A stretch of DNA of 24,000 nucleotides from Ravibacter arvi (GTDB lineage Bacteria; Bacteroidota; Bacteroidia; Cytophagales; Spirosomataceae), in NCBI RefSeq assembly GCF_039540405.1, contig NZ_BAABEY010000001.1, positions 5,493-29,492 on the forward strand, given 5' to 3'. A program made the translations under genes and the position numbers. The number at the start of each line of letters is the position of its first letter. Position 1 is the stretch's first letter. Shown piece after piece: positions 3,523-16,808 of the stretch. The notes beneath the pieces were generated by a model. That model was not told the DNA's origin, did no database searches, and was given only the letters and a program-made list of their open reading frames with translations.

Positions 3523-5964
3523 ATGAAGAACCTCCTCTTTACAATTTGTCTGGCAGGAATGGTCGCCCTGAATAACGCTTCAGCTGAAACGTTTCCAGTA
3601 AGGTTGGCAGTTGTTTATATGGATGTACCACCGGGACAAAGTGAATCACAGAAAGTTATTGCGAATCTGAAGCTGAAAAGCATACACGATGGCTATCCAA
3701 AATATTCTGCGAATGCAATAGGATTTTTCCCAGAGAGAGAGCTCTATTTTGACGGGACGCGATGGGTTTTTGTCGAGAAACCTCTTTCCGGGCCTGATAT
3801 TGTCAAATGTCATAACTCTTCAGTGTCGATACGGCCTCCCACCGGGCGATGGACGAATTGCGTCTCGGTGTCTGTAGATGGCGAACAGATGTGCACGCCT
3901 CCCGAGCTTGTCGTTGAAATCAAGCGTTATACGCCTCTGGAGCAGCATGACGGTTATTATCTGACACTGGTTTCCAAATTAAATGGCACCGATGATACCA
4001 AGGCATCTTTCACATGGCTGCCCGGAGGGAAAACAGGTGAGAGCATCGAGGTACATGTTGATAAGCCAACCATTTATACTGCAACTGCCCTGCTAACCGG
4101 GTCTTGCGAAGGACTTTTAGAGATTTCTCAAACTATTCAGGTTCCGCCCCCTACCCCGGGATTGATGGCTGACGCAGGAAAAGACAATCTGGAATATTGT
4201 GGCACCAGATTACGCCTTCAAGCAAACAATCCACCTTTAGGTTGTAGCGGGTATTGGTTCGGTTCGCGATCGGAAGTGCAGGCGTTTTCGGATGACAGAG
4301 CCCCTGATTCTTTCTTTACCGGCGCTCCCGGCGAGTCGTATTCCCTGCTTTGGTATCTGACCGATGGGTATTATTCAAGTAAGGACGAAGTAATGATTTC
4401 GTTTAATAAATACAAGGCTGACGCCGGACCAGATCAGGTCGGGACTACATGCGGACCGATAGTTCTTACCGGAAATGTGAATGAGTTTGGGGTTAAAACC
4501 AAGTGGCGTATAATTAACGGTTTAGGTGGAAACCTTGAAAACGATAGCGATTTTCAAACCAAGTTTATCGGGTTCAATAACAATACATATATAATTAGGT
4601 TTACGGTTTTTGCTGATTTCTGCGTTACGGAGGATGACATAACTGTTCAATATAAAGAAAAACCATCAATTGCGTCGGCCGGTCCGGATCAACTTAAAGC
4701 GGACAAGTGTGATCTGCCCATTATTGGTCTTGCAGCCGACCAGCCACTTATCGGATTTGGCGAGTGGAGCATTGTGTCGGGTAGTGGCGGCAGTTTTACG
4801 GATCGTTCCAACCCGGCCTCGGTCTTCAAAGGAGCACCCGGTACAGCCTATGTTTTGAAATGGTCGACCACAAATCCCCCCTGTGAAGCATCCCATGATG
4901 AAGCAACTGTGAGTATTGGAAACATACCCGCTTTGTCTGTCAATGCAGATGCACAGCAAGCATTTGTTGGTGATAATATTGATTATAACCTCATCACACC
5001 GGAGTGTCGTATTATTGCGACCGTCAATGGAGTCGATCTTACGGATGGCATCAATCCTTTTTACGGGAGGGTTACGATTGACAATTCTGTTCTTAATTAT
5101 GCCGGGCAACCTTGTTTGCAACGACATTTTCAATTTACAACCGGCAATAGCGCTGCTACAGCTGACGTCATACTCTACGTGAATAAAAGCGAAATGATGG
5201 CTTTCAATGCATCCAGTACCAAAAAGCTACCTGTTGACCCCTCCGATGACAAGAGTAATTTGCGAGTTTGGCAATGGCATGAAGCGAGTGCAACCGGTCC
5301 GCCTGACAAGACAATTGACCCGGATGACAATGATATCGAATGGGATGAGATGCTGGGGGCCTGGAAGATAAAATTTCCTGTCTCAGGGTTCTCATCATTT
5401 TATCTCACGGCCGAAAACGCGGCGCCGCTACCGGTCACTTTGGTCAGTTTCTCAGCAGGGCAAAATGAAAAGGGTGTGACGCTCTTCTGGCAGACCACCG
5501 AAGAAATCAACAGCGATCATTTCGAAATCCAACGCAGCAGTGATGCCAGAAATTGGACCGGTATTGGAAAGATACAGGCAAAAGGTGAAAGTCGTGGAGT
5601 AACAACCTATTCATTCATCGACAGCAATCCGGCGCCAGGTTTCGCTCCTACCTATTACAGGCTCAAAATAACAGACCGAGATGCCACCTTCATCTATTCC
5701 CGTATTATATCAATTTCGGTGGAAAATAATCCCACAATTACAGTTTTTCCAAATCCTGCGAGTCATATGGCTACTATTCGGAGCGCGGAGCCGATTTCAG
5801 GCTATGAACTGTTTTCCGGAAATGGAATGATGATAAAAGGGATGGGAATGCGAACCGCTCGCAATACGGAAATTAATCTGAGCTTTGTTCCTGCTGGTTT
5901 ATACCTGCTCAGACTCAAGTTTGAAAACGGGGAAACCGTCTATAGAAAACTGGTGGTTGAGTGA
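3523..5964 (+). CDS. Secreted adhesin-like protein with three ~85-aa ADAG.D-type repeats and a T9SS C-terminal sorting domain
   Basis: The ORF opens at a TTG (3517). The first ATG at 3523 gives MKNLLFTICLAGMVALNNASAE, which is signal-like. Three repeats begin ADAGKDN / ADAGPDQ / ASAGPDQ and end in G(A)PG..Y.L.W. The C-terminal ~270 aa are paralogous to the previous protein (PLPVTLVSFSA...HFEIQRSSDARNWTGIGKIQAKGES...YYRLKI.DRD) and end in VFPNPA...GLYLLRL...RKLVVE. Confidence 0.85.
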   Translation: MKNLLFTICLAGMVALNNASAETFPVRLAVVYMDVPPGQSESQKVIANLKLKSIHDGYPKYSANAIGFFPERELYFDGTRWVFVEKPLSGPDIVKCHNSSVSIRPPTGRWTNCVSVSVDGEQMCTPPELVVEIKRYTPLEQHDGYYLTLVSKLNGTDDTKASFTWLPGGKTGESIEVHVDKPTIYTATALLTGSCEGLLEISQTIQVPPPTPGLMADAGKDNLEYCGTRLRLQANNPPLGCSGYWFGSRSEVQAFSDDRAPDSFFTGAPGESYSLLWYLTDGYYSSKDEVMISFNKYKADAGPDQVGTTCGPIVLTGNVNEFGVKTKWRIINGLGGNLENDSDFQTKFIGFNNNTYIIRFTVFADFCVTEDDITVQYKEKPSIASAGPDQLKADKCDLPIIGLAADQPLIGFGEWSIVSGSGGSFTDRSNPASVFKGAPGTAYVLKWSTTNPPCEASHDEATVSIGNIPALSVNADAQQAFVGDNIDYNLITPECRIIATVNGVDLTDGINPFYGRVTIDNSVLNYAGQPCLQRHFQFTTGNSAATADVILYVNKSEMMAFNASSTKKLPVDPSDDKSNLRVWQWHEASATGPPDKTIDPDDNDIEWDEMLGAWKIKFPVSGFSSFYLTAENAAPLPVTLVSFSAGQNEKGVTLFWQTTEEINSDHFEIQRSSDARNWTGIGKIQAKGESRGVTTYSFIDSNPAPGFAPTYYRLKITDRDATFIYSRIISISVENNPTITVFPNPASHMATIRSAEPISGYELFSGNGMMIKGMGMRTARNTEINLSFVPAGLYLLRLKFENGETVYRKLVVE

Positions 5965-11237: not shown

Positions 11238-12026
11238 CTACATCCACACCCTCTCTAGCGTCTGCCTAAATACTTCATTAAGCTTTTCCGTGTCAGGCTG
11301 ATTTTGTGGTCCTAACCCCCTGACGTACTCCGTGTAGAATTGGATCTTTTGTTCAAGAAAACTGTTCAGTACCTGAATTTTCGGTTCCTCATCCAGTTCC
11401 TCCCCTGACACTTTTCTGTTAAGCAGGTTCCGGATTTCATTCTCAACACCCGTATCTATCACCTGACTGTCGAGGAGCTTTTGAAACTCCATAGGAGCCA
11501 TGGAGTTGGTTTTCCTGATCCAATCGCAGGCAAGTATCGGACGCAATACGTAGAAGTATTTCTTCACGCGTACCTTCTCCCCCTGCAAATACGTCTTGTA
11601 ATTGCCTTCGGCCATATGCAGGTAATGATACAAACAGGATTTCGGGTTAAAATACATCTCCGTCAACTCCCGAAGCCTTTCAGCAAAGAAACCACGTTGC
11701 CAATAGACCATCGGACTTCTCAACCACTCCAGCATAGCAGGATTTGATTTTCGAAAAAGACGCAAGGCCTTCTTCAGTTCCCACCCGGCCAGATCGATAT
11801 CGTTGGGCAGTATTTCCTCCTGGCTATCCTTTTTGTCGTCGATGTCCAAATACCATTCAGGCTGATGAACATACATGTATCGCACATCCCAATCGCTGTC
11901 AACGGATGCGAAACCCCAAGCCCGGCTGCCGCTTTCGACAGCATAGAGGATTTTGATAGCATGTTGCTGTTCGAGGCGTAGAAGCTCCCTTTTTATTTCT
12001 TCTGTCATCACTTGCGGTATTGTCAT
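11238..12026 (-). CDS. RlaP-type (Pol-beta fold, PF10127-like) nucleotidyltransferase associated with RNA ligase operons
   Basis: The nucleotidyltransferase core reads ILYAVESGSRAWGFASVDSDWDVRYMYV (GS...D.D). It is followed by LKKALRLFRKSNPAMLEWLRSPMVY, typical of this family. The ORF opens at GTG 12095. ATG candidates are at 12026 and 12008, so the start is uncertain by about 20-90 nt. Confidence 0.8.
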   Translation of the reverse strand: MTIPQVMTEEIKRELLRLEQQHAIKILYAVESGSRAWGFASVDSDWDVRYMYVHQPEWYLDIDDKKDSQEEILPNDIDLAGWELKKALRLFRKSNPAMLEWLRSPMVYWQRGFFAERLRELTEMYFNPKSCLYHYLHMAEGNYKTYLQGEKVRVKKYFYVLRPILACDWIRKTNSMAPMEFQKLLDSQVIDTGVENEIRNLLNRKVSGEELDEEPKIQVLNSFLEQKIQFYTEYVRGLGPQNQPDTEKLNEVFRQTLERVWM

Positions 12027-12133
12027 ATGATCTCTGAAAACCGGCTTTTTACTTCGAAATGGTAATCTCCGGTGATCCTTAAAATGCAGAATCACTGGAG
12101 GTTAACCGGCCATTCGATAAACTACTAAAAACA

Positions 12134-12230
12134 GAAAGAGCGACAAGCCAGCTGTACATTTTCAGGATTCGAACCTGGGCTGTTTTCACAGCTTCTACCA
12201 GCGAAGTATTACATCTGTACAGCATCTTTC
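12134..12230 (-). ncRNA. Y-RNA-like module A (tRNA-like: D-like arm, GAAA-capped hairpin, T-arm; closed by terminal helices)
   Basis: Minus strand: GAAAGA-U-GCUGUACA...CUUC-GCUGGUA-GAAG, CUGU-GAAA-ACAG, CAGG-UUCGAAU-CCUG...UGUACAGC...GUCGC-UCUUUC, then a U5 run. The terminal helix is GAAAGA/UCUUUC and the inner 8-bp helix is GCUGUACA/UGUACAGC. It lies downstream of rsr in an ORF-free gap. Ends are approximate. Confidence 0.65.
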
Positions 12231-12238
12231 ATTTTGTT

Positions 12239-12371
12239 AAGAAGGGTAAAAAAGCAATGCATGGAATATACACCTTACGGCGCTCTGCTCTACCCACTGA
12301 GCTACCCCGCCAGGGCGGGAGCCAGACTCGAACTGGCGACACGAAGTAACACACATTTACGACACCTTCTT
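12239..12371 (-). ncRNA. yrlA: YrlA-type Y RNA module B: circularly permuted tRNA mimic (T-arm, loop-closed acceptor stem, D-arm)
   Basis: On the minus strand the T-arm is GCCAG-UUCGAGU-CUGGC (plus 12321-12337). The acceptor-like hairpin is UCCCGC-CCUG-GCGGGG (12305-12320). After UA comes the D-arm GCUC-AGUGGGUA-GAGC (12287-12302). The flanking 7-bp terminal helix is AAGAAGG (12365-12371) / CCUUCUU (12239-12245). There is no anticodon arm and no free CCA end. It sits next to rsr, as bacterial Y RNAs typically do. Confidence 0.7.
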
Positions 12372-12389
12372 ATTTCTTTATAATAATGG

Positions 12390-12514
12390 TAAGGAGCGAC
12401 AGGCAAAACGAGACGGGGGACCGCCGTTGAGGACTCGAACCTCCATCATATGTTGCCATACAATGCCCTCCCCCTCAAATGCTAGCGAAGTAACCCGTTT
12501 TTACGGCATCCTTA
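12390..12514 (-). ncRNA. Y-RNA-like module C (paralog of module A: D-like arm, GCAA-capped 9-bp hairpin, T-arm)
   Basis: Minus strand: UAAGGA-U-GCCGU...CUUC-GCUAGCAUUU-GAGG, then CAUUGUAUG-GCAA-CAUAUGAUG (plus 12444-12465), then GAGG-UUCGAGU-CCUC (12429-12443), then ACGGC...GUCGC-UCCUUA. It shares the 5' motif UGCYGUA...UACUUCGCU and the 3' motif UGUCGCUCYUU with module A. Ends are approximate. Confidence 0.65.
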
Positions 12515-12561: not shown

Positions 12562-14157
12562 TCACAAGAAGCCGGGGGAACACGAAGCAATGTCGATACG
12601 CTCGATTTCATCTAGCGCTTTTCCGCCGTTTTCCAGGGCATCAAGCACGCCGAAGATCTTATCGCTCCATCCGGCCAGCAGGTAAACCTCATTCTGGATG
12701 ATCTGTACGGGTGGGCGTCCATACCCCATCAGGTCAAAAAGGTATAACCTTGCATCGGGCGCTACAGTACGTTTGTATTCCAGCCATAACGCGTAGATGT
12801 TTTTTGTACCGGTCATGCTGTTCCACAACTGACAGTCGGTAAATAGCATCACTTTGTCCATTACTACTTTCTGTTTCAACAGATCCTCAATCACGAGAAA
12901 ACCATTGGTGGAGTAGCCTACCTCTCCTTCCCGCCTATAAAACTCCTGTACATTTGCCAGGACGTTGTTCTTAGGCACCGGGATCAGCTTCCAGGTATCT
13001 CCAAACATCCCGACCCTTACGTTCCTGCACCGGCTTTGAAGCAGCATAGCCAACATCAGTCCTACATCATAGAGCAGGACCTTCGACTTTGGTGAGACAG
13101 GCTTCTGCATGGAGCCCGATATATCACACGCAAGCAATATCCTGGTATTTTCATCAAACCCGGCTATCACGGATGCACTTTGAACAACAGCTTTTTCAAG
13201 CGCTTCCAGTAGCTCGCCTACATATCCATCACTCCCGGTGAAAAAACTTTTCAGCTTTTCAGAAAGGCCGCTCTTTCCAGTAGGCAAAGACAGCAACTCG
13301 CGGTAAGCTGCCAGGTACCGAAAAGGGAATTGTTTTGCATTAGCCACTTTCTCCGGCGCAGAAAGCTGATCCGCTACCTTGCGGATGTGCGGGTGAGATA
13401 CGCCCGCCTCCAGCATATTCCGCAGGTTACGAAGCGTAGCCATGTGACCCAATTTCCCACTATCGATCAGTTCTTCCCATTTAGCTTTAAATGCAGCTTC
13501 CTTTTCAGCGTCACACTCATAGGAAACCTGGCCCAGGGCTGACAGCTCTGTCTCCCAGGTATAAGGTGTTTCAAGCCTGTCGTCTGCAATTTTGTTAAAA
13601 AGATGTTGCTGCGCTTCATCTTTCGGCTTCGGGTGCACCATGAAAAGCGCATCCCGCAACCGGATTTCGGCCGGACGATTGTATTTGGCAAACTGGTATT
13701 CGTCAAACCTGTTAAAAGCCGTAGACAATCCTTTCTGCAATTGTTTGGACAGGCCACCCAGCTTTTTAAAGCCTTTGCGCTTGTTTAAGACCTGGTAACA
13801 GGCCAACAGCTCCGTGATCTCGTCAGCACGTGCAATGACCTTTGCAGTAGCTTTGGACACCAGGTCGTCACCGGAATGTACCCGGGCCAGTTCGGTCAGC
13901 AGCACCAGCGGCGCTGACCGCATATACATTTTATAACGGGTGTAAACTGCCAGCTTTGCGACAAACAACGGATCATTCTCCGCTATCAGCTTCCTGACGC
14001 GCAGCAGGCGATCATTATCCTTTTCGTAAAACGAATCACTGACAGACCACGTCACTACGGCGGTATATAGCTCCATTGCAGGGTCAAGCCTGAAGGTCTT
14101 CTCTCCTTCATAGTTTTTAATCTGCATGCTCCCGTTGTTGACTGTATTAAACCTCAT
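12562..14157 (-). CDS. rsr: Ro60 ortholog Rsr (TROVE domain plus C-terminal vWA domain with MIDAS motif)
   Basis: The protein is about 530 aa. Its N-terminal two-thirds are helical and TROVE-like (FRLDPAMELYTAVVTW...FYEKDNDRLLRVRKLIAE...FVAKLAVYTR...MRSAPLVLL). The C-terminal vWA domain carries DISGSM (DxSxS). It lies next to rtcB and the tRNA-like RNAs. The ATG at 14157 is preferred over the TTG at 14199, which falls inside the upstream palindrome. Confidence 0.85.
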   Translation of the reverse strand: MRFNTVNNGSMQIKNYEGEKTFRLDPAMELYTAVVTWSVSDSFYEKDNDRLLRVRKLIAENDPLFVAKLAVYTRYKMYMRSAPLVLLTELARVHSGDDLVSKATAKVIARADEITELLACYQVLNKRKGFKKLGGLSKQLQKGLSTAFNRFDEYQFAKYNRPAEIRLRDALFMVHPKPKDEAQQHLFNKIADDRLETPYTWETELSALGQVSYECDAEKEAAFKAKWEELIDSGKLGHMATLRNLRNMLEAGVSHPHIRKVADQLSAPEKVANAKQFPFRYLAAYRELLSLPTGKSGLSEKLKSFFTGSDGYVGELLEALEKAVVQSASVIAGFDENTRILLACDISGSMQKPVSPKSKVLLYDVGLMLAMLLQSRCRNVRVGMFGDTWKLIPVPKNNVLANVQEFYRREGEVGYSTNGFLVIEDLLKQKVVMDKVMLFTDCQLWNSMTGTKNIYALWLEYKRTVAPDARLYLFDLMGYGRPPVQIIQNEVYLLAGWSDKIFGVLDALENGGKALDEIERIDIASCSPGFL

Positions 14158-14195
14158 GACATTCTTTGTTTTAATTGAATGTTCAAATTTCAAAC

Positions 14196-14224
14196 TCAAC
14201 TGCGCGGTCTTTCTGCGCAGTTGA
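14196..14224. promoter_or_regulatory. Palindromic operator-like site upstream of rsr (copy 1)
   Basis: TCAACTGCGC-GGTCTTTCT-GCGCAGTTGA has perfect 10-bp arms. It lies between the rtcB stop (14233) and the rsr ATG (14157). It is nearly identical to the site at 15727-15751. Confidence 0.7.
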
Positions 14225-14232
14225 AACTTTTT

Positions 14233-15687
14233 TTAATCCTCCGGCTTTTCTTTAGGATCGGCCATCCTGACAATCCGCGGCTGGAAGCTGGCGAGGACTT
14301 CTACCAAGTCGGATTGCGCGGCCATCACCGCATAGATATCCTTGTAAACCATCGGCGCTTCATCCAGCCCGGATCCGATCACCGTAATGCGGTTTTCCTT
14401 CAGGTTCCTGTCTACCACTGCCTTGTCGATGGTCTTAAGGGCCGCGCTCCGGCTCATCAACCGTCCAGCGCCATGAGAGGCCGAATGCAGCGACTCAGCA
14501 TTCCCTTTTCCACGAACTACAAACCCAGGGGTGCTCATGGAGCCGGGAATAATCCCGAGGGTATCCGCTCCGGCCGGGGTTGCCCCCTTGCGGTGTACCA
14601 TCACATCCGTACCGTCGGCCAGTTTTTCCTTCCAGGCGAAGTTGTGGTGGTTCTCGATGCGTCTCACCGGCGATACGCCGAGTCCTTTGGCGATCTTGTT
14701 GTGGATCTCATGATGGTTAGCCGAAGCGTAGTCGCCTGCCAGGTTCATCGCGATCCAGTACTCTTGTCCCTCGTCGCTATGAAGGTCCAGCCAGGCCAGG
14801 TGACGTGCTTCTTTTGGAAGCAGGGTCTTCTGCATCGCAATGGCCGAATAGGTATTGGCAATATTCCCGCCGAATCCCCTTGAACCGGAATGGGACAGTA
14901 AGGCCAGGTATCTTCCGGCGGGGATACCGTCCAGCGCATTTTCCGTAATCGTCAGCTCACCCCATTCCACGAAATGATTACCGGTTCCGGAGGTACCCAG
15001 CTGCGCATAAGCTTTATCCTTCAGCGCTTTTACGGTCTTGATTTCATTCCACTCCGGGCGGTCGAACAGCGTCGTATCCAGGTGTACGTTCGTTTTAGCC
15101 CCCATACCGAAGTGCGTATGCTCCATCAGCAGTTTTTCCAGTCTTGGCTTTTCGTGCTCCACCGATGCTGCCGGCAGATCGAAGATGCTCAGGCACATAC
15201 GACAGGCGATGTCCACCCCAACCGCATAGGGGATAATGGTATCCGGCTCTGTCGCCAGTACTCCACCTATCGGCAGACCGTAGCCCTGGTGCGCATCAGG
15301 CATCAATGCCCCTGCCACTGCAATGGGCAACTGGATAGCCGTACGCATCTGCGCCAGGGCGCCCACTTCTATGTGTTCCGGGCCGAAGACTGGGAAAGTC
15401 ATGATTTCCTCCTTTAACTGCTGCACGCTCCGGGCCTGTTTGATGAACTGACCTTTCGCGCGCAACTCAACGATCCGTTCGGCAAGATTCTTGAATTTAC
15501 CGTTCCGTTTCAGCGCATAAGGTTCCGGGTGCTCGATCAAGGCTTCAAGGTTGGCCATAATAGTGGCTTTGTCCATCACCTCGTGCTTCAGCAGGCCGTT
15601 GGCCACGCGGCTGAATGCTACCAGCAAGTCCAGGTCGCTGATTCCCAAAGCGCCTAATTCTCCATTGCTGATTTTTTCTCTTTCCAT
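14233..15687 (-). CDS. rtcB: RNA 3'-phosphate/5'-OH ligase RtcB (with an N-terminal extension of roughly 50-85 aa)
   Basis: Canonical RtcB motifs are present: MPDAHQGYGLPIGG, GVDIACRM, GTSGTGNHFVEWG, HSGSRGFG, NHHNFAWKE, HRKGATPA, IPGSMSTPGFVVRGKG and SASHGAGR (the GMP-histidine context). The ATG at 15687 (MEREKISNG...) is preferred over the TTG at 15720. Confidence 0.95.
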   Translation of the reverse strand: MEREKISNGELGALGISDLDLLVAFSRVANGLLKHEVMDKATIMANLEALIEHPEPYALKRNGKFKNLAERIVELRAKGQFIKQARSVQQLKEEIMTFPVFGPEHIEVGALAQMRTAIQLPIAVAGALMPDAHQGYGLPIGGVLATEPDTIIPYAVGVDIACRMCLSIFDLPAASVEHEKPRLEKLLMEHTHFGMGAKTNVHLDTTLFDRPEWNEIKTVKALKDKAYAQLGTSGTGNHFVEWGELTITENALDGIPAGRYLALLSHSGSRGFGGNIANTYSAIAMQKTLLPKEARHLAWLDLHSDEGQEYWIAMNLAGDYASANHHEIHNKIAKGLGVSPVRRIENHHNFAWKEKLADGTDVMVHRKGATPAGADTLGIIPGSMSTPGFVVRGKGNAESLHSASHGAGRLMSRSAALKTIDKAVVDRNLKENRITVIGSGLDEAPMVYKDIYAVMAAQSDLVEVLASFQPRIVRMADPKEKPED

Positions 15688-15726
15688 GAAAGGTATTTTT
15701 ATTTTGATGCTACAAACCAAACCTCT

Positions 15727-15751
15727 AACTGCGCAGTCTTTTTGCGCAGTT
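15727..15751. promoter_or_regulatory. Palindromic operator-like site in the rtcB / WYL-regulator divergent intergenic region (copy 2)
   Basis: AACTGCGCA-GTCTTTT-TGCGCAGTT has perfect 9-bp arms. It lies about 40 nt upstream of the rtcB ATG and 35 nt upstream of the divergent regulator ATG (15786). Confidence 0.7.
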
Positions 15752-15785
15752 GAATTTATTTCCTTACTTTTCTAAAAAAGTTGCG

Positions 15786-16808
15786 ATGCCTGTCAACCGA
15801 AACGCCCTCATACGTTACCGTACCATTGACCAATGCCTTCAGAACCGGTTCCGGAAATGGACCCTCGACGATCTCATTGAAGCCTGCTCGGCCGCCTTGT
15901 ATGAGTTTGAAGGGATCGACAAAGGTGTGAGCAGGCGGACCGTCCAGGCCGATATAGAAATGATGCGAAGCGACAAGCTGGGCTATGAAGCGCCTATTGT
16001 TGTAGTCGACCGGAAATACTACAGTTATGCGGACAAAAACTACAGCATCGCCCATATCCCGTTGAGCCACCAGGATCTGAAGGTGCTGACCGAAGTATCG
16101 GGCCTGCTGCAGCAATTCAAGGGCTTCAGCCATTCTACCGACCTGACCGAGATGGTCAGCAGGCTGGAGGATAAGATACACGCCCGTAAAACACATTCAG
16201 CCCCGGTCATCGATTTTGAAAAGAACGATCACCTTCGCGGCCTGGAGTATATTGAGGGCATCCGGAAAGCGATCGTTGCCCGGACAACGCTTTATCTTAC
16301 TTACCAATCGTTCAAAGCCCGGCAGGCCAGCTCATTCCACTTCAGTCCATACCTGTTGAAAGAGTACCGGAACCGGTGGTTTATGCTTGGCTTGTCACAC
16401 CAGCGGCATGCACCTTTACTCACACTGGCTTTGGACCGGATACAGGATTTTGGGGAAGACACCGGAGAGCCCCACCGGGAAAATACCCAAATCGATCTAT
16501 CCACCTATTATTCGGATGTGATCGGCGTGACCAAAACTCCGGGGCAGCGCGACTGTGAAGTAATATTCAGGATGGATCACAAAGACGCTCCTTACCTGAT
16601 CACCAAGCCGCTTCATCCTACGCAGAGGGTTTTGAGCGAAGACGCAGGAGGGAAAATTTTCAGTATTAAGGTTGTCTTGAACTTCGAGCTGGAAAGGGAG
16701 ATACTTGGTTTTGGTCCAAGAATACACGTTTTAGGTCCAAGGATTCTTCGTAAAAGGATCAGGGAACAGTTGAGAGAGGCTTTGGAGAAATATGAGTCTC
16801 CAGAATGA
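15786..16808 (+). CDS. HTH-WYL domain transcriptional regulator
   Basis: The ATG at 15786 gives MPVNRNALIRYRTIDQCLQNRFRKWTLDDLIEACS...GVSRRTVQADIEMMR, the N-terminal wHTH typical of Bacteroidota WYL regulators. The central WYL-type strand reads FHFSPYLLKEYRNRWFMLG. A C-terminal extension follows. The gene is divergent from rtcB. Confidence 0.8.
   Translation: MPVNRNALIRYRTIDQCLQNRFRKWTLDDLIEACSAALYEFEGIDKGVSRRTVQADIEMMRSDKLGYEAPIVVVDRKYYSYADKNYSIAHIPLSHQDLKVLTEVSGLLQQFKGFSHSTDLTEMVSRLEDKIHARKTHSAPVIDFEKNDHLRGLEYIEGIRKAIVARTTLYLTYQSFKARQASSFHFSPYLLKEYRNRWFMLGLSHQRHAPLLTLALDRIQDFGEDTGEPHRENTQIDLSTYYSDVIGVTKTPGQRDCEVIFRMDHKDAPYLITKPLHPTQRVLSEDAGGKIFSIKVVLNFELEREILGFGPRIHVLGPRILRKRIREQLREALEKYESPE

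Follow-up and report, generated by a model that had tools for sequence, protein, structure and literature searches.

Bacterial Y RNAs adjoin rsr, the gene for the Ro60 orthologue Rsr; their termini form a Ro60-binding stem, and they conserve a GNCGAA-like motif on the 5' strand (Chen et al. 2014, PMC4201824). Beyond YrlA, a possible T arm, as in transfer RNA (tRNA), has been noted in YrlB of M. smegmatis, and Yrn1 of D. radiodurans has been modelled with D-loop features, an "anticodon arm" of 5 base pairs (bp), and a T arm, so that it departs from YrlA both in how the T and D arms are oriented and in which stem-loop lies between them (Chen et al. 2014, PMC4201824). In YrlA, an elbow forms by contacts between the GG of the D loop and the T loop; an effector that reads this elbow has been proposed, and a model in which YrlA originated from a dimeric tRNA has been cited (Wang et al. 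2018, bioRxiv 10.1101/312249). RlaP adds 1-2 nucleotides (nt) to damaged RNA 3' ends, including those of tRNA (PMC12776372). Here, we describe a 24,000-nt stretch of Ravibacter arvi (assembly GCF_039540405.1, contig NZ_BAABEY010000001.1, positions 5,493 to 29,492; hereafter the window), in which two RNA modules, A and C, flank a YrlA-type RNA, module B, between rsr and rlaP. We consider it likely that A and C are two further Rsr-associated Y RNAs and paralogues of YrlA, each consisting of a handle and a T-arm-based partial mimic of tRNA.

Modules A, B, and C and their common handle

The modules fill the 466-nt spacer on the minus strand of an operon with the order rtcB, rsr, RNAs, rlaP:

12390-12514, minus strand: module C, C-type Y-RNA-like, 125 nt, first after rsr (122.9 bits with covariance model R2)
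12243-12373, minus strand: module B, permuted YrlA-type Y RNA (Rfam YrlA RF02553, 40 bits, E = 3e-7)
12134-12230, minus strand: module A, A-type Y-RNA-like, about 98 nt, last in the array (85.9 bits with covariance model R1)

An initial annotation, made from the sequence alone, had described A and C as tRNA mimics in canonical arm order, with GNRA-capped hairpins in place of the anticodon arm, beside a permuted module. All the motif strings that it quoted are found on the minus strand where it placed them, and the locus does carry a permuted module of the YrlA type (T arm, closed acceptor-like hairpin, D arm). The comparison of B with RF02553 (12253-12357) skips the 5' GUCGUAAAU motif, and its 40 bits fall below the gathering score of 69; RF02553 therefore under-detects Bacteroidota YrlAs.

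To follow the modules beyond the window, we used the near relative L001 (Rsr 93% identical), 80 Bacteroidota rsr loci with one genome per species (L002-L081), and four Dyadobacter-like loci (L202-L205). Full-length homologues of C were found by nhmmer in >30 loci and those of A in ~13. Model R1 was built from 20 A-type sequences, and members scoring at least 57 bits were taken as A-type proper; 34 members reached this score and 4 more lie in Dyadobacter (~38 in total). Model R2 describes the C-type and returned 64 matches, ~58 of them C-type. The C alignment was made by model-based realignment; the MAFFT alignment had misplaced the 3' spacer and made two of the C helices described below (P3 and Px) look weak. 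In the window and 81 loci, R1 also matched 303 handle-bearing modules, nearly all downstream of rsr and on its strand. The parts common to every module are helix P1, UGCCGUA, helix P2, UACUUCG, and the 3' strand YUGUUGCUC, and it is the apical domains that vary. Written as DNA, the frame TGYYGTA-N9-TACTTCG has 0.03 expected occurrences in the 24 kb, yet each module contains one, making exactly three. Across all module types, UGCCGUA shows little or no variation, and the equivalent site reads G(C/U)CGUA(R)AA in all modules, module A of the window having GCUGUA; G:C and C:G pairs are predicted across the UGCCGUA internal loop, with covariation.

What the comparison of loci demonstrates is the synteny, conservation, and helices of A and C. 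The helices of module A are as follows:

12225-12230 with 12134-12139, minus strand: P1, 5' strand GAAAGA; 7/7 family pairs change on both sides
12218-12224, minus strand: UGCUGUA, a variant of UGCCGUA and presumed Ro60-binding 5' strand; partner UUGUCGC at 12140-12146
12210-12217 with 12149-12156, minus strand: P2 in the family register, 5' strand CAGAUGUA with UACAGCUG, 7/8 pairs
12216-12223 with 12151-12158, minus strand: shifted alternative to P2, GCUGUACA with UGUACAGC, a perfect 8 bp
12202-12208, minus strand: UACUUCG, invariant and common to A, B, and C
12192-12206, minus strand: D-like arm CUUC-GCUGGUA-GAAG (CUUC 12206-12203, GCUGGUA 12202-12196, GAAG 12195-12192)
12180-12191, minus strand: 4-bp hairpin CUGU-GAAA-ACAG in the anticodon-arm position; 4/4 pairs covary
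12163-12177, minus strand: T arm CAGG-UUCGAAU-CCUG; 2/4 pairs covary, the other 2 are invariant G:C

Those of module C are the following:

12509-12514 with 12390-12395, minus strand: P1; 6/6 pairs covary
12494-12501 with 12405-12412, minus strand: P2, 5' strand AAAACGGG with CUCGUUUU; 8/8 pairs covary
12470-12474 with 12415-12419, minus strand: P3, GGGGG/CCCCC, enclosing the hairpin and T arm; 3/5 pairs change on both sides
12444-12465, minus strand: 9-bp hairpin with a GCAA cap, abutting the T arm; 9/9 pairs covary
12429-12443, minus strand: T arm GAGG-UUCGAGU-CCUC; 3/4 pairs covary, 99% of cells paired
12484-12488 with 12421-12425, minus strand: Px, tentative candidate pseudoknot of UCGCU with GGCGG just 3' of the T arm
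12490-12487 and 12476-12473, minus strand: CUUC and GAGG, strands of the D-like arm proposed in the initial annotation

In the 34-sequence model-based alignment of the A-type, 91% of cells are paired compared with 38-48% when the partners are slid, and P2, the register of which was set from Dyadobacter homologues, covaries at 8/8 family pairs with 97% of cells paired. The corresponding overall figures for the C-type are 90% and 43-55%; P2 of C shows the compensatory variants GGCAAG/CUUGCC and CAGG/CCUG, and P3 is paired in 82% of cells, with the covariants GGAGA/UCUCC, GAGGAAAU/AUUUCCUC, and GGCC/GGCC and with both strands deleted together in L041. In the T arms, both families have an invariant inner G:C in the stem; the second G:C never varies in the A-type and is present in 49/63 of the C-type, the T loops of A and C match UUCRANY, and L001 has a compensatory A:U to G:C change in the T arm of A. 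Covariation across dozens of related loci thus strongly supports structured RNAs in both cases, each with a T arm and a capped hairpin; every pair of P1 and P2 covaries in the A-type and the C-type alike, and the termini continue into a long terminal helix.

Candidate alternatives to these helices were also considered. Two substitutions of L001 in the terminal helix of A had been taken as helix-breaking; this was rejected because the family register of P2 differs from the one assumed and the window has 7/8 pairs in it. The local CCGT-AAAA-ACGG hairpin in C, which the initial annotation had named as the fold that would speak against its model, is disfavored by the covariation of the long-range P2 at 8/8 pairs. 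Putting the local hairpin (CCG-UAGAAA-CGG) in place of P2 is 3.0 kcal/mol worse when P3 is left out (-20.1 versus -23.1) and 3.7 kcal/mol worse when it is present (-28.7 versus -32.4).

One could argue that the modules are remains without a function of their own, either pseudogenes decayed from tRNA or YrlA or debris of repeats. Consistent with this, ARAGORN found no tRNA gene in the window, Rfam at the gathering threshold found nothing in it, and RF02553 did not match A or C even at E <= 10. In E-value mode, Rfam gave only spurious isrK and ZFAT-AS1 matches to A, the only match of its tRNA model in the region was a spurious one of 15 bits running from B into the 5' part of A (12199-12311), and no Rfam Y-RNA family besides YrlA matched the region; folding z-scores are also weak, as given below. 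Against this, several Bacteroidota families show compensatory changes in almost every helix, array position is conserved (C usually first, A last), and the Rsr divergence of 57-74% speaks against alignment artefacts from recent duplication. We regard this reading, which the covariation contradicts, as extremely improbable.

The apical domains of modules A and C

By analogy with characterized Y RNAs, the handle (P1, the internal loop UGCCGUA/YUGUUGC, P2, and UACUUCG) would be the site at which the ring of Ro60, here Rsr, binds, and each module would carry, as its second part, an apical effector domain with a canonical T arm at its core. For module A, the initial annotation had given the order D-like arm, hairpin, and T arm. 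The hairpin and T arm stand, as both covary; the D-like stem is conserved but does not covary. Its pairing declines from 31/31 sequences at the inner C:G pair, through 25/29 and 22/29 at the two U:A pairs, to 10/27 at the outer C:G pair, and the arm is worth -3.7 kcal/mol. The GG of the D-like loop is retained in ~24/34 aligned A-types (counted by eye), and UA-CUUC-GCUGGUA-GAAG in A parallels the canonical UA-GCUC-AGUGGGUA-GAGC, UACUUCG resembling, as far as the sequence suggests, U8-A9-G10CUC13-A14 of tRNA. We note that P2 (8 bp) and the T stem (4 bp) of A add up to the 12 bp of the acceptor/T stack of tRNA. It is plausible that the D-like stem is real, and module A probably forms a minimal mimic of the tRNA elbow in canonical arm order, in which the GG of the D-like loop most likely docks into the T loop and the terminal helix takes the acceptor position.

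Module C appears to be organized differently. P3 would close a junction that holds the long capped hairpin stacked against the T arm; the 9-bp hairpin does meet the 4-bp T stem without a spacer. A pseudoknot of UCGCU with the strand 3' of the T arm (Px) is possible, and a D arm would be absent. Complementarity at Px is found in most homologues and is better than in all 1000 within-sequence shuffles, and the wider set holds compensatory-looking variants (GUCU/AGAC in Flavobacterium; GGUA/UACC, GACG/UGUC, and GUCA/UGAC elsewhere).

The initial annotation had given C a D-like arm as well and had suggested that the GNRA tetraloops of both modules serve docking. The reading that follows, in which A and C are both unpermuted cloverleaf mimics of tRNA and the tetraloops are specific docking modules, draws on strings that all exist, on a D-like arm in A that fits the D-arm pattern and has a conserved GG, and on the fact that CUU in C can pair with RRG in 28-31/33 homologues. 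For C, however, the outer pair of the D-like arm is found in 9/33 homologues, none of its pairs covary, its GAGG overlaps the covarying P3, its putative D loop has no GG, and the model containing it is 6.7 kcal/mol worse than the model with P3. The caps are equally variable: GNRA is found in 16 of the 23 A-type hairpins (16/34 members, as 11/34, mostly Flavobacterium, have no hairpin) and in 21 of the 62 C-type caps, the latter also including 1 UUCG and 20 six-nt loops on stems ranging from 7 bp to long interrupted helices; three-nt loops occur as well. As the caps are not conserved as GNRA and the hairpin is sometimes missing, a specific docking role is unlikely, and we conclude that the cap is a generic stabilizer of a variable spacer arm and not a conserved docking element. 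The cloverleaf reading as a whole thus appears unlikely to us. What the initial annotation observed is real and has biological meaning; its interpretation was right for A in outline and wrong on the D arm of C and on the role of GNRA, as well as on the novelty of the topology (see below).

Returning to the reading of A and C as handle-bearing Y RNAs with partial tRNA mimics, several observations weigh against it or against parts of it. In the D-like stem of A, no pair changes on both sides, RNAalifold recovers only one pair, the arm is broken in D. diqingensis (AAA replaces GAA), and a competing UACU/GGUA stem is possible; the stem cannot covary, however, because its 5' strand is part of the invariant UACUUCG. 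The minimum free energy structure of module A (-26.6 kcal/mol) breaks the T arm, compared with -23.1 kcal/mol for the structure of the initial annotation, and folding yields only weak z-scores (A, -2.0; C, 0.06), so that folds of single sequences told us little or misled. The Ro motif GYCGUA, although similar, differs from the published GNCGAA(N0-1G). Finally, Px and P3 cannot both be nested, and permutation of Px among the 33 sequences gave pairings as good in 272/2000 cases, which is not significant; because this test failed, Px is taken as tentative only.

Some homologues of C depart from the type. In L204, a C-type module is cut to 78 nt (4116-4193), apparently by deletion between two TTCGA repeats, which belong to the invariant CUUCG and to the T loop, respectively; this suggests a route to short modules. 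In L013 (5922-6062), a 19-nt hairpin is inserted inside the T loop (GGGGGTTCG-TCCCGATAGCTATCGGGA-CCCC). In a C-type subgroup, found in L032, L035, L037, L041, L042, L054, L056, L061, L064, and L066, the loop UGCAAAU replaces the T-loop consensus UUCGANU and the stem is kept.

The operon and the arrays of related loci

The genes around the modules are the following:

15750-16808, plus strand: divergent WYL/WCX-domain regulator (Pfam)
14233-15720, minus strand: rtcB RNA ligase (Pfam PF01139, E = 1.7e-82)
12562-14199, minus strand: rsr, Ro60 orthologue with TROVE and vWA domains (Pfam)
11238-12095, minus strand: rlaP nucleotidyltransferase (Pfam PF10127, E = 1.5e-90)

Rsr of the window is 72% identical to that of Dyadobacter and ~67% identical to that of Mucilaginibacter, its closest named relatives. 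The outer modules lie 47 nt and 331 nt from the rsr stop codon on the same strand, C being nearer. A scan of the minus-strand spacer with a sigma-70 model, which does not cover Bacteroidota promoters, gave no promoter-like site, and a terminator scan of the spacer gave nothing convincing, its sole candidate being a weak 5-pair match inside module C. As the spacer has no convincing terminator-like site and the modules share the strand of the flanking rsr and rlaP, we propose that A and C are expressed by co-transcription with rtcB-rsr and rlaP and are then probably cut from the transcript. They would tether or gate Rsr and show different fragments of the tRNA shape to partners that recognize tRNA. 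The pathway may be RNA repair or degradation, with RtcB, RlaP, PNPase, RNase P, and modification enzymes such as TruB as candidate partners.

The same arrangement would also suit cis-acting tRNA-like elements that punctuate or stabilize the messenger RNA, for example RNase P/Z sites splitting rsr from rlaP. The modules lie between co-oriented genes, with no promoter-like site and one weak terminator-like match in the spacer; T arms are determinants for RNase P/Z, and YrlA of M. smegmatis is cut by RNase P. However, the same handle recurs in up to 8 tandem modules and also where no rlaP follows (rlaP is nearby in 10/80 related loci, compared with 40/80 for rtcB), which is better explained by a handle that binds protein than by a signal for processing. 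Processing and protein binding are, moreover, compatible roles and not mutually exclusive. As an explanation in its own right, the cis-acting role seems to us a slim prospect.

Two further observations concern the operon. The rsr open reading frame as listed opens at a TTG (14157-14199 region) 14 codons upstream of Met-15, which is invariant in the alignment and is the start of all homologues, so the start of rsr is probably near 14157. A near-identical palindrome, AACTGCGC-N9-GCGCAGTT, occurs twice in the window (0 expected by chance), at 15727-15751 in the divergent region between rtcB and the WYL regulator and at 14198-14222 at the rtcB-rsr junction; the closest relative L001 (778-802) also has it, and the other 80 loci lack it. 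It may be an operator of the WYL regulator or an RNA hairpin; a homologue of this regulator lies <=4 kb away in 39/80 related loci, and the gene neighbourhood is conserved.

Downstream of rsr in L002-L081, there are 2-8 tandem Y-RNA-like modules per locus in semi-conserved order (for example, L006 5631-6470, L013 5631-6733, and L015 5632-6655). C is mostly first after rsr and A last; L001 and those Dyadobacter-like loci that retain all three modules likewise have the order C-B-A. Two more types occur in the arrays: one of ~99 nt that lacks a T arm, and a short one of ~75 nt (GCCUGUCACGC...). A further type of ~126-141 nt, present in relatives and not in the window, has a third topology in which the tRNA-like domain is permuted in the D loop:

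L002, 6273-6412
L004, 6305-6441
L005, 6560-6698
L006, 6234-6371
L009, 6929-7055
L013, 6485-6625
L019, 6057-6182

In this ~138-nt type, the head reads, after CUUC, GG-UUA-GAAC-A, a hairpin of 5-6 bp, AGGAC, the T arm, a closed acceptor-like hairpin, and UA-GUUC-AG. Nearly all of a tRNA-like domain is present; the Y stem interrupts it between about nt 15 and G18, and the split D stem covaries (GAAC/GUUC versus GAGC/GCUC). Given the GAAC/GUUC pairing, the GG-U-GAA of module A therefore looks homologous to a genuine D-loop/D-stem half.

In L026, L035, L037, L042, L066, and L072, the rsr/Y-RNA loci are flanked by 7-17 genuine tRNA genes (ARAGORN). These arrays recall the tRNA clusters of phages and mobile elements and bear on the proposed tRNA origin of Y RNAs. 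A scan of viral contigs with the 14-base frame gave 120 matches, and among the 80 searched, a real module was found only in L152 (IMG/VR contig 3300037587_000181, a predicted viral contig); the remaining matches are presumably due to chance. The L152 module (3881-4015) is single, has the Bacteroidota handle, and lies in surroundings poor in open reading frames with weak T-arm-like matches nearby.

Wider reading and comparison with known RNAs

A broader interpretation, which we put forward as doubtful but possible, is that Bacteroidota rsr loci carry a combinatorial set of Y RNAs in which one Ro60-binding handle is joined to differing tRNA fragments or permutations. The heads would comprise the A-type (elbow only, in canonical order), the C-type (a hairpin/T-arm junction with a pseudoknot), YrlA (T arm, acceptor-like hairpin, D arm), and the ~138-nt near-complete D-loop permutation. 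If this is true, each kind of head could bring its own tRNA-handling enzymes to Rsr, or the heads could serve as decoys for toxins that target tRNA, and the A-type would be a Y RNA derived from a monomeric tRNA, which would complement or challenge the dimeric-tRNA origin model for YrlA.

To our knowledge, YrlA is the sole bacterial Y RNA family with a curated model. The A-type, the C-type, and the third permutation in relatives would provide a natural dissection series of tRNA mimicry on one handle. The T loop is kept in every head that bears a T arm, and the GG wherever a D-like loop exists; the acceptor hairpin, the full D arm, and the hairpin in the anticodon-arm position are dispensable. 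This would narrow the search for an effector to proteins that read the T loop or the elbow, and the series would allow the idea that Y RNAs arose from tRNA to be tested directly.

In the literature that could be searched, no description of A-type, C-type, or D-loop-permuted modules was found, and Rfam 15 contains none of the module types apart from YrlA. The initial annotation had considered the topology of A and C undescribed for Y RNAs. Yrn1 of D. radiodurans had, however, already been modelled in this way by Chen et al. (2014), and the topology is therefore already in print as a weak single-RNA model. The A-type and C-type families and the array organization appear to be new, although they are of a known Y RNA kind.

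Compared with tRNA, A and C share the T-arm consensus with G53:C61-type pairs, and A, in which the arms follow the canonical order, also has the UA dinucleotide and a putative 4-bp stem with a 7-nt loop in which UA comes after GG. Unlike tRNA, the modules have no anticodon loop, free acceptor end, or CCA, their T stem is 4 bp, and their spacers differ from the canonical lengths. Like YrlB (M. smegmatis and S. Typhimurium) and Yrn2 (D. radiodurans), A and C would be second Y RNAs beside YrlA or Yrn1 and rsr; YrlB and Yrn2, set beside A and C by description only, are described as long hairpins with small pyrimidine-rich loops, and we know of no conserved family or covariation model for them.

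The topology proposed for A would match that of Yrn1 (in the Fig. 2E model of the latter) in the D-loop features, a stem-loop in the anticodon position, the T arm, and a putative Ro stem at the acceptor position, the comparison being made through the published model only and between different phyla. In Yrn1, the metazoan-like Ro helix is retained on both strands, the stem-loop has 5 bp and a 6-nt loop, and the D arm is unconfirmed (no dihydrouridine). Unlike YrlA, in which the order is T arm, closed acceptor-like hairpin, and full D arm, module A has a D-like arm, a capped hairpin, and a T arm, and module C has a hairpin and T arm enclosed by P3 and no D arm; both lack the UAGCUCA...GAGC D arm as well as any acceptor-like hairpin on the 3' side of the T arm. 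Like YrlA, A and C adjoin rsr on the same strand within an RNA-repair operon and have a long terminal stem with a putative 5' Ro motif, a YUAY-like UUAC or AUAC at the stem exit, and the T loop UUCGANU.
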